DNA of 64,000 nucleotides from Candidatus Heimdallarchaeota archaeon (GTDB lineage: Archaea; Asgardarchaeota; Heimdallarchaeia; Heimdallarchaeales; Heimdallarchaeaceae), in NCBI GenBank assembly GCA_030603365.1, contig JAUVXV010000008.1, positions 32,001-96,000 on the forward strand, in the 5' to 3' direction. The notes beneath the pieces were generated by a model. That model was given only the letters and a program-made list of their open reading frames with translations, searched no databases and was not told the origin of the DNA. How positions within the stretch are numbered: the stretch's first letter is position 1; every line of letters starts with the position of its first letter. Below, one piece after another: positions 32,347 through 34,919 of this stretch. Made by a program: the position numbers and the translations under genes.

Positions 32347-33156
32347 TTAAAACGTTTCCTCATTTTCATAATAAGGAATAATTTTTCCACTAATGAATTC
32401 GAAAAGAATTGGATCTCCCGTTAATTCTGGCTTACCTTTTACATTTATCACTCTTACTTCAGTTATTGGTCTATCTGCTTTAGTCTTAGATTTAGATACA
32501 CGTATGGTAACGTCACAGTTGTGCTCTATTGCTCTAACTAACAGAGGGTCATGAGCATCATGGTGAAGAATGAATACAGTAACCGAACCTTCAATTTTGT
32601 TTGCTGCTAATCTGTTTTGCAAGAAGGAGAATAGTATCTTTTTACTTTCATCAGATGCATATATTATTGAAGAAAGTGAAACTACAATCCCTCTCTTCAA
32701 TACTTTCTGATTTTGAACATGTAGAAAAGATCTTCTAATTGTTTCATTAATCTCTCTTGGCTGACTCAGATTATGAACAGCATTTTCGTGAGTTGTTTTA
32801 ACGTCTGTATAACCAAAAGGGTTACTAAAAGCATCAATAAACTTTAGTCTTCCTGTTGCTTCAAGCATCTCAGGATTAACACCTATACCGTTCATTACTT
32901 CGTTATAGTAGCTATATGGATGTTCTGTGGAAAAGATATATCCATATTCTCCGGATCTTAATCCCTCTGCTAGAAACTGTAAAACGAAAGGATCTGCTTC
33001 TGCGCCTATTTCATCTTCAATTAAAACATTAGATCCCGCTGGAACCCCTCCTCCAAGTATTTCATCTAAAGTTGGTATTCCAAATGTAAAAAGTTTCTTT
33101 TCTACTGAATCAGAATTTGTTGAAAACATAGGATTCATCTCATATATTCTAATCAA
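32347..33156 (-). CDS. KaiC/RAD55-like RecA-fold protein with degenerate Walker motifs
   Basis: FGIPTLDEILGGGVPAGSNVLI, QFLAEGL..GE, FIDAF; P-loop reads EDEIGAEAD. Confidence 0.8.
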   Translation of the reverse strand: MIRIYEMNPMFSTNSDSVEKKLFTFGIPTLDEILGGGVPAGSNVLIEDEIGAEADPFVLQFLAEGLRSGEYGYIFSTEHPYSYYNEVMNGIGVNPEMLEATGRLKFIDAFSNPFGYTDVKTTHENAVHNLSQPREINETIRRSFLHVQNQKVLKRGIVVSLSSIIYASDESKKILFSFLQNRLAANKIEGSVTVFILHHDAHDPLLVRAIEHNCDVTIRVSKSKTKADRPITEVRVINVKGKPELTGDPILFEFISGKIIPYYENEETF

Positions 33157-33201
33157 ATCTTTGGGTTTTCGAATATTAAAATATAGTGCTAGCTATCAAC
33201 C

Positions 33202-33531
33202 TTAGTTAAGTTTCTTGGTTAGTTTCTTTCTTAGTTTGTCATCCAATTGGTTAGGAGTCATGTAATCATATTGATTGTATTGTACTTTATTTTTGAATTT
33301 TGGATTAGCTTTTTGAAGAGATTTAATTGGTCTAAGACATTGTCCATTATCACCCATCTTTCTTTCTCTACATTCAGCATAAATACACATAGAACCTAGA
33401 CATTCCACATCGTCCATAGTACAGTTGAAAGACTTTTTCCCATTATTATTAACGATTCTAAGCATTCTTTTGCTACAGAAAAAAGATTTACAAGTTAGCT
33501 TGCATTCTTGATCATTTGAACTGGCTGTCAT
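33202..33531 (-). CDS. Cys-rich hypothetical protein
   Basis: Eight Cys: CKLTCKSFFC...C.....ECLGSMCIYAEC........QC. Confidence 0.7.
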   Translation of the reverse strand: MTASSNDQECKLTCKSFFCSKRMLRIVNNNGKKSFNCTMDDVECLGSMCIYAECRERKMGDNGQCLRPIKSLQKANPKFKNKVQYNQYDYMTPNQLDDKLRKKLTKKLN

Positions 33532-33747
33532 AGAAAAATACTTGCTATAATTCCAGCTATGAGTCCACTAAATAATCCTCGAAGTGTCTTAAGATCGCCT
33601 AGAATTCTTTTTCCATCGATGAAATTATTGTAAGCATCAACAGGATATCCCCCCACCAAAAATTGCTGGAGCTGCATTAGAAACAAATATTGGGAGGGCA
33701 AAAAGGATAGCTAAATCTACATAACATGAAGCCCATAATTTTCACAT
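33528..33747 (-). pseudogene. carS: Disrupted, truncated CDP-archaeol synthase relic; not in ORF track
   Basis: Manual translation LPIFVSNAAPAIFGG[frameshift in G6]GYPVDAYNNFIDGKRILGDLKTLRGLFSGLIAGIIASIFL* matches the CarS N-terminal motif; C-terminal half absent. Confidence 0.8.
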
Positions 33748-33866
33748 CAAGTAAACAACATTTGTTAAAAATCACTCTATTTAAAATATGCGAAGAAGGA
33801 TAAGTCGTAGATTCTTAAATTAAAATAACAAAAAGATTAATTGTAAGTACCACTATTTCTTTATGA

Positions 33867-34919
33867 ATGTATGATTTAGCTTTCATTTATTCCGATATTT
33901 TCAAAAAACATGCGATGGACAGAGCTCATCCTGAATCGCCTCTTCGTTTAGATGAAATAATGAAAGCAGTAAATGAAATTCAGAGCGAAAAAAAATACAA
34001 TATTGCTACGTTATTACCAGAAATAATAGATGAAGAATATCTTCTATCTGTTCATGTTACTGATTACATAGACAAAATAAGAGCAATTTCTAAAGGTGGA
34101 GGAGGGATGATCACCATTGATACAACTCTCAATGAACATACATTCTTCATAGCCAAGTATGCTGCAGGAGCAACCAAACAGGCTGCTCAATTAGTAGATG
34201 AAAATAAAGCAAGAAAAAGTTTTGCTGTTGTAAGACCTCCAGGACATCATGCAGAGAGTACTTCAGCTGGAGGATTTTGTTATTTTAACAATATAGCTAT
34301 AGCAGCTGAATGGTTAGTTCAATATAAAGGATATAACAAAGTTGCAATTATAGATATTGATCATCATTTCGGAAATGGCACATCCCACATTTTTTATCAT
34401 AGAAAAGATGTTTTTTATCTCTCTATACACGCTCATCCTAGATATTCATATCCAGGTTCAGGTTATTCAAATGAGATAGGGGTTGTTGACGCTAAAGGAT
34501 ATAATGTGAATGTAACTCTTTTACCGGGTATCAATGGCTATGATTGGTTGCATTCACTAAAATTCTCTTTGAACATAGTGAAACAATATCAACCAGAGAT
34601 AATACTAGTTTCAGTAGGATTTGATTCATTAGCTGGTGATCCCGTTGGTATCATGAATGTGGAACCTAATGCATTCTATGGTGCAGGATTTCTCTTAAAT
34701 CAATTCGCTGAAGAGATCTGTGAAGGGAAAATCGTCTGTACTTTAGAGGGAGGATACAAAAGAGATCAACTTAAAGCTGTGAGTAAGAAGTTCATTTTAG
34801 GACTGCTTGGGAACAAACCAGACTTTATCCATCAATTGGAAAGAAGCAAAGTTACTGAACATACTGCTAAAATGTTGAACCAAGTTAAGAGAGAGCATCA
34901 GAACTATTGGCGATTTTAA
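33867..34919 (+). CDS. Histone deacetylase / acetoin-utilisation family protein
   Basis: HPESPLRL, RPPGHHA, GFCYFNN, DIDHHFGNGT, YPGSG, GFD..AGDP, LEGGY. Confidence 0.95.
   Translation: MYDLAFIYSDIFKKHAMDRAHPESPLRLDEIMKAVNEIQSEKKYNIATLLPEIIDEEYLLSVHVTDYIDKIRAISKGGGGMITIDTTLNEHTFFIAKYAAGATKQAAQLVDENKARKSFAVVRPPGHHAESTSAGGFCYFNNIAIAAEWLVQYKGYNKVAIIDIDHHFGNGTSHIFYHRKDVFYLSIHAHPRYSYPGSGYSNEIGVVDAKGYNVNVTLLPGINGYDWLHSLKFSLNIVKQYQPEIILVSVGFDSLAGDPVGIMNVEPNAFYGAGFLLNQFAEEICEGKIVCTLEGGYKRDQLKAVSKKFILGLLGNKPDFIHQLERSKVTEHTAKMLNQVKREHQNYWRF

Follow-up and report, generated by a model that had tools for sequence, protein, structure and literature searches.

Does the decayed gene for CDP-archaeol synthase (CarS) that an earlier note recognised in an apparently intergenic region of a Candidatus Heimdallarchaeota genome indicate that an Asgard lineage is abandoning canonical archaeal phospholipid activation, or has this genome lost one copy among several? 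Had this been the sole CarS gene, the genome would represent an Asgard archaeon unable to make CDP-archaeol, with a direct bearing on the origin of the bacterial-type lipids of eukaryotes; this was not the case here. The locus lies in a 64-kb window (the whole stretch of DNA analyzed), and the entire genome to which it belongs (G000; 3.65 Mb, 17 contigs, 89% complete) was searched. We consider it very probable that window positions 33531-33736, on the minus strand, are the dead remnant of one of three CarS paralogues of this Heimdallarchaeaceae genome (class a), a dispensable copy destroyed chiefly by a deletion of approximately 415 bp. The relic is a genuine, fairly young pseudogene, and the paralogue from which it derives was probably redundant. 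The features are listed in Table 1.

Table 1 Features of the relic and its neighbors in the window, and lipid-pathway genes found in the whole genome
Feature	Position	Strand	Evidence or remark
Cys-rich ORF, 109 aa, intact	33202..33531	-	Full-length orthologues (56-67% identity) in 17 sister genomes, always in this position
TGA ending the relic frame	33528..33530	-	Overlaps the ATG of the next gene at 33529-33531 (ATGA)
carS codons 7-69 (TM1, loop 1 with P.D...DG.R.LGD.KT.G signature, TM2), in two frames	33531..33720	-	PF01864 match; trees
Lesion 3: junction CAAGTATTTTTCT of the ~415-bp deletion	33532..33544	-	Alignments
Lesion 2: G run lengthened by one base, to G6	33649..33654	-	Orthologues GGT GGN GGN; alignments with G016 and G040
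Lesion 1: 2-bp deletion between 33723 and 33722, codons 5/6, outside homopolymer	33721..33723	-	Alignments with G016 and G040
First five codons of the relic (MGFML), including the original ATG	33722..33736	-	Aligns with MGFFLD (G016) and MGFMLH (G040)
TATA-like box ATATTTTAAATA, putative carS promoter	33778..33789	-	~42 nt upstream of the original ATG, in the divergent spacer with the histone-deacetylase-family gene
Histone-deacetylase-family gene (PF00850)	33867-34919	+	
G1P dehydrogenase (G1PDH)	G000		Found; 451 bits, above the equivalog cut-off of 413
DGGGPS-like UbiA	G000		Present, below its cut-offs; MenA-like UbiA also present
CDP-alcohol phosphatidyltransferases	G000		Two present
PlsY (PF02660)	C14:99915-100529, C2:38977-39612, C1:455201-455821		Three homologues, best 180 bits

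Both minus-strand peptides on which the earlier note had based its identification were present, in two different frames, and their likeness to the CarS N-terminus was borne out by a profile match. The 70-residue product, read through the G run, matched the CarS-like family PF01864 with 57.6 bits (E = 2.1e-15, model positions 8-65 of 175), a similarity much too strong to be fortuitous. The relic comprises the first 69 or so of approximately 178 codons, spread over three frames with two interruptions, and encodes only TM1, cytoplasmic loop 1 and TM2, not an uninterrupted five-TM ORF of approximately 170-180 aa. The C-terminal catalytic half was correctly described as missing, approximately 415 bp being absent relative to the sister genome G016. 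We defined the conserved core of CarS as the 27 alignment columns conserved in both single-copy families and class a. All 10 core columns covered by the relic were kept, and all 17 columns past codon 69 were absent (D104, GSF.KRR at 107-113, DQ at 126-127 and H161; G016 numbering). Compared with the CarS protein AF1740 (Jain et al. 2014) and the ApCarS structure 5GUF (Ren et al. 2017), both reviewed together with the five-helix architecture in PMC9385802, the residues of the relic fit TM1, the signature of loop 1 and TM2, but nothing is left of TM3-5 or of the second cytoplasmic loop, which carries D..GSF.KRR, DQ and the conserved His. Because these parts are gone, an active site cannot form, and the relic is unable to make the enzyme.

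Two candidate C-terminal remnants were rejected. The whole-genome PF01864 search gave a match in the window that reached model position 147 by passing through three stops; DNA alignment showed that the extension was the Cys-rich gene in the wrong frame. A split carS with its C-terminal half elsewhere was rejected because the same search returned only the relic and the two genes of classes b and c described below.

The identity of the relic as an orthologue of bona fide CarS followed from synteny and from clustering with intact class-a genes, whose scores against the CarS equivalog model are 152-159 bits (cut-off 148 bits). The same gene order (MFS gene, histone-deacetylase-family gene, carS, Cys-rich ORF, KaiC-like gene, AAA kinase gene, GTPase gene) was found in 15 sister genomes with an intact carS of 175-181 aa, and the relic occupies the carS position. 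In trees, it was placed in the class-a clade (96-99 SH-aLRT), beside G016 and G040. Three other genomes, G003, G006 and G073, showed no trace of carS at the locus, where the spacer between the histone-deacetylase-family gene and the Cys-rich ORF was only approximately 118 nt. In a tree of three flanking proteins, these three genomes formed one clade (support 100), sister to species with intact carS, and G000 grouped with G016 and G040, both of which have an intact gene. Because the clade without carS is separate from G000, and each stands amid intact relatives, class a was lost at least twice. In both G003 and G006, only class b was found genome-wide (genomes 81-88% complete), from which it can be argued that class b alone would suffice.

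The earlier note had allowed that a functional copy might exist elsewhere, and two intact CarS paralogues with predicted function were indeed found in G000. The note had itself named an intact carS elsewhere in the genome as a refutation, and by that standard its lipid-transition reading is refuted. These full-length genes were located at C9:194891-195454 (197 aa, class b) and C4:99236-99766 (186-206 aa, class c). They are divergent paralogues, not identical duplicates of the relic, with which they shared 36-39% peptide identity; an intact class-a copy may also lie in the missing part of the 89%-complete genome. A survey of the genus (25 genomes) and of the class (70) counted up to three CarS genes per genome. 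All copies of the family Heimdallarchaeaceae (f1) formed one group in the trees, in which class a (99 SH-aLRT) separated from classes b and c (97), and the single-copy CarS genes of other families fell outside this group. Because other genera of the family are represented in every class, the three classes stem from a triplication in the family ancestor. CarS triplication at the level of the family Heimdallarchaeaceae, followed by differential and repeated losses, is documented here, and its three paralogue classes offer a clear set for comparing substrate preferences at the bench.

The classes differed in their scores against NCBIfam NF003114, the CarS equivalog model. Class a was the only one of the three above the cut-off (five of five proteins); class b scored 132-144 bits (five of five proteins; 142 in G000), that is, 4-16 bits under the cut-off, and class c scored 124-131 bits (three of three proteins; 124.6 in G000), also below it. 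The copy that was lost, twice, was the most canonical of the three paralogues. As a caution for annotation, curated cut-offs would wrongly score G000 as lacking CarS. The class-b gene on C9 passed the Pfam cut-off (117 vs 22 bits), and class-b proteins kept 24-25 of the 27 core columns, with no loss among the conserved Asp, Lys, Arg, Gln and His residues. Class b also aligned to 5GUF over both loops, and a protein at least 90% identical to it bears the public name CDP-archaeol synthase; the names attached to that protein point to Heimdallarchaeaceae. Unlike the relic, class b has a 4-residue insert that replaces the GGG turn. Class c kept about 22 of the 27 columns (N21 changed to S, D41 in a gap, N165 changed to S). 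The relic belongs to the same Pfam family as classes b and c and shares with them descent from one triplication; unlike the broken relic, both paralogues are intact, and both are under the equivalog cut-off. From the conservation of its core, class b would be the paralogue with which class a was redundant.

Two further observations concern CarS paralogues. The class-c gene of G000 adjoins a gene for a DegV fatty-acid-binding protein and a SatD-family gene (locus L002, G000:C4:97736-101266, at 284-1153 and 1498-2118). In another family of the same class (f5, genus g14), there are two to four CarS-like genes (e.g., G050:C1:4065204-4065827), among which a form of 210-240 aa matched the Pfam model in two separate segments (positions 1-75 and 64-172); this pattern suggests an insertion between the two halves.

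The proposal that this lineage is losing or replacing canonical archaeal phospholipid activation was not borne out: besides the two intact CarS paralogues, G1PDH, a DGGGPS-like UbiA and two CDP-alcohol phosphatidyltransferases are present, so that most of the remaining archaeal route is in place, and a loss of CDP-archaeol synthesis is not supported. Because two intact copies stand elsewhere in the genome, the relic reflects how a redundant paralogue is ordinarily lost, whereas archaeal lipid activation as such has not disappeared. In the genome-wide search for lipid enzymes, CarS, G1PDH, the DGGGPS-like protein and PlsY were recovered, whereas GGGPS, CdsA and PlsC were not. No PlsC was found in G000 with PF01553. 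With PF01148, no CdsA was found in G000 apart from weak matches on the two intact CarS paralogues. Bacterial CdsA is a distant homologue of CarS with the same CTP-transferase chemistry, but the relic has no PF01148 match and no true CdsA was found in the genome. GGGPS was not found in G000 by PF01884, by TIGR01768 or by tblastn with homologues from the same order, and the PF01884 cut-off was passed by none of the 19 genomes of the genus (g1) that were searched. Either GGGPS is very divergent here or the first ether bond is formed in another way. Because this gap extends through the genus irrespective of class-a status, it is uninformative about the relic. A weak PF01884 match to an ORF of approximately 215 aa in sister genomes was rejected as GGGPS; its orthologue in G000, at the end of the window, presumably forms a barrel of the hexulose-phosphate-synthase type, judging from its LQIALD start.

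Among the alternatives to paralogue loss, the one that fares best is a real shift in lipid activation, in which canonical CarS is replaced by divergent paralogues with altered substrates while the lineage rebuilds its membrane lipid pathway. Such a shift seems improbable. It would fit the repeated loss of the sole class above the NF003114 cut-off, the absence of two core residues (N21 and D41) from class c together with its DegV neighbor, and the presence of three PlsY homologues in a genome where GGGPS, CdsA and PlsC went undetected. However, most sister species have kept class a alongside class b, class b retains the conserved core and falls only slightly short of the cut-off, and the G1PDH and DGGGPS-like genes of G000 are intact. 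GGGPS went undetected whatever the status of class a, with no covariation, and PlsY in Asgard archaea has already been reported and does not group with eukaryotes (PMC6431249). We likewise regard it as unlikely that divergent CarS paralogues are taking over head-group activation, possibly with acyl- or G3P-based substrates, in these relatives of eukaryotes.

The lesions were read from the assembled consensus, in pairwise DNA alignments with the intact class-a orthologues of G016 and G040. Two frameshifts and the deletion of approximately 415 bp were found, against intact syntenic orthologues in the 15 sister genomes, in agreement with the view that several independent lesions had accumulated. 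The extra base that had been noted in the G6 run is present (C6 on the forward strand, one base more than in either orthologue), and so is the stop that overlaps the ATG of the next gene. An ATG at 33747 followed by an in-frame TGA, which had been taken for a further lesion, is literally there, but the start of the gene is the ATG at 33736-33734, in a third frame, and the lesion near it is the 2-bp deletion. The large deletion extends from after codon ~69 to the ATG of the Cys-rich ORF, and it takes the catalytic C-terminal two thirds of carS and the spacer. The junction CAAGTATTTTTCT is similar both to codons 66-69 of carS in the relatives and to the leader CAAGTAGTTTT that is conserved immediately before the Cys-rich ATG, a likeness that points to a microhomology-mediated deletion.

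If the lesions were artefacts, an intact class-a carS would stand at the locus, the indels would be consensus errors and the deletion would be a collapse in assembly. One lesion does sit in a homopolymer; the window has just two G/C runs of at least 6, and this C6 run is the first of them to be considered here. The second run is inside an intact ORF of 1317 aa, and the six flanking genes (4,665 nt, with 33 homopolymers of at least 5) were full-length and in frame relative to their orthologues; in contrast to these clean flanks, the relic holds three separate lesions in 206 nt. The 2-bp deletion is outside any homopolymer, and the 415-bp deletion is in the middle of a long contig, with no collapsible repeat longer than approximately 11 nt. 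In addition, a sister clade lacks class-a carS entirely, so the gene is dispensable. Together these points favor real decay over general assembly noise and leave an artefact highly unlikely as the explanation of the locus; the two small indels, taken by themselves, may be consensus or assembly errors or may reflect heterogeneity in the population.

The decay appears to be fairly recent. After correction of the frame, the relic had zero in-frame stops in a genome with 33% GC, and it kept 23 of the 24 residues that are invariant in class a. When the relic, G016 and G040 were compared three ways, the number of unique third-position changes was 12 in the relic vs 13 and 12 in the orthologues, and that of first- and second-position changes was 12 vs 6 and 6, about double, an excess that is not significant on 68 codons. 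The equal third-position and doubled first- and second-position changes, the lack of stops and the conserved residues suggest that the relic was released from constraint fairly recently.

The following course of events would account for these data. In the family ancestor, CarS was triplicated, giving class a on one side and classes b and c on the other. In the species of G000, class a would then have ceased to be needed, most likely owing to class b, in which the conserved CarS core is almost complete. The main event would have been the deletion of approximately 415 bp between short similar sequences, which would have removed TM3-5, loop 2 and the promoter spacer of the neighboring gene, and two small frameshifts would have occurred alongside it. 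Prokaryotic pseudogenes of redundant paralogues are cleared through deletional bias. The relic resembles such ordinary pseudogenes in its frameshifts and in its deletion between short similar sequences, and their end state is seen in the sister clade, where class-a carS has been deleted completely. It differs from them in that the promoter of a neighbor was deleted as well, and the remnant may therefore be kept as a regulatory region.

From the ATG at 33736-33734, a ribosome would hit the TAA at 33677-33679 after 19 codons. The 19-codon ORF ends in a stop/start overlap (TAATG, 33675-33679), and the 49-codon ORF after it ends in another (ATGA, 33528-33531); this chain of overlaps may be due to chance or may be a route for reinitiation. 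Continued protein coding by the relic, as a micropeptide with one TM (49 codons from the ATG at 33677) or through rescue by programmed frameshifting, has the two overlaps and the well-preserved residues in its favor, but it is scarcely credible, given that no catalytic half to be rescued exists anywhere in the genome, that two shifts of different sign would be required, that a word-limited search of 5.8 billion clusters found no CarS N-terminal proteins 38-123 aa long, and that recency accounts for the preservation. Within the sensitivity of that word-based search, the same result leaves a recurrent truncated form of CarS unsupported. An Rfam scan of positions 33100-33950 gave no match at E ≤ 1, so that the relic contains no RNA element of a known family.

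The neighbor of the relic is the Cys-rich ORF, which is directly downstream of class-a carS throughout the genus. Its product has eight invariant Cys residues (C-x3-C-x4-C-x17-C-x6-C-x4-C-x4-C-x11-C), all kept in G000, and a basic LDDK.RKKL tail. It had no Pfam match, and a protein search of the Atlas gave only hypothetical archaeal clusters. A scan for genome contigs with this ORF returned one locus only, the same as that of G073.

In intact loci, a spacer of approximately 85 nt separates carS from the Cys-rich ORF and bears its own TATA-like box approximately 45-50 nt before the ATG. In sister genomes with an intact class-a carS, the box ATATTTTAAATA precedes the gene with the same spacing, and it is identical in G040; its position and conservation are consistent with a promoter role. 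In G000, the deletion took the TATA-bearing spacer of the Cys-rich ORF and left the TATA-like box of carS, so that the relic now abuts the Cys-rich ORF. The deletion in G003, G006 and G073 was the opposite: the carS promoter and gene were lost and the Cys-rich spacer was kept. Both independent deletions thus left exactly one TATA-bearing spacer before the Cys-rich ORF. Because the deletion in G000 took the Cys-rich promoter but left that of carS, the relic may have been captured as the promoter and leader (approximately 200 nt) of the Cys-rich gene; from the arrangement of the sequence, we put the chances of this at about even. Alternatively, an internal AT-rich element, ATTATTTA, at about -45 from the Cys-rich ATG, could serve as the promoter, or the relic may persist simply through its youth.

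The next gene of the locus, the KaiC-like ATPase gene (window 32350-33138, minus strand), was 83-92% identical across the genus. It also showed weaker matches to the eukaryotic Elongator families Elp4 (PAXNEB, above the cut-off) and Elp6.
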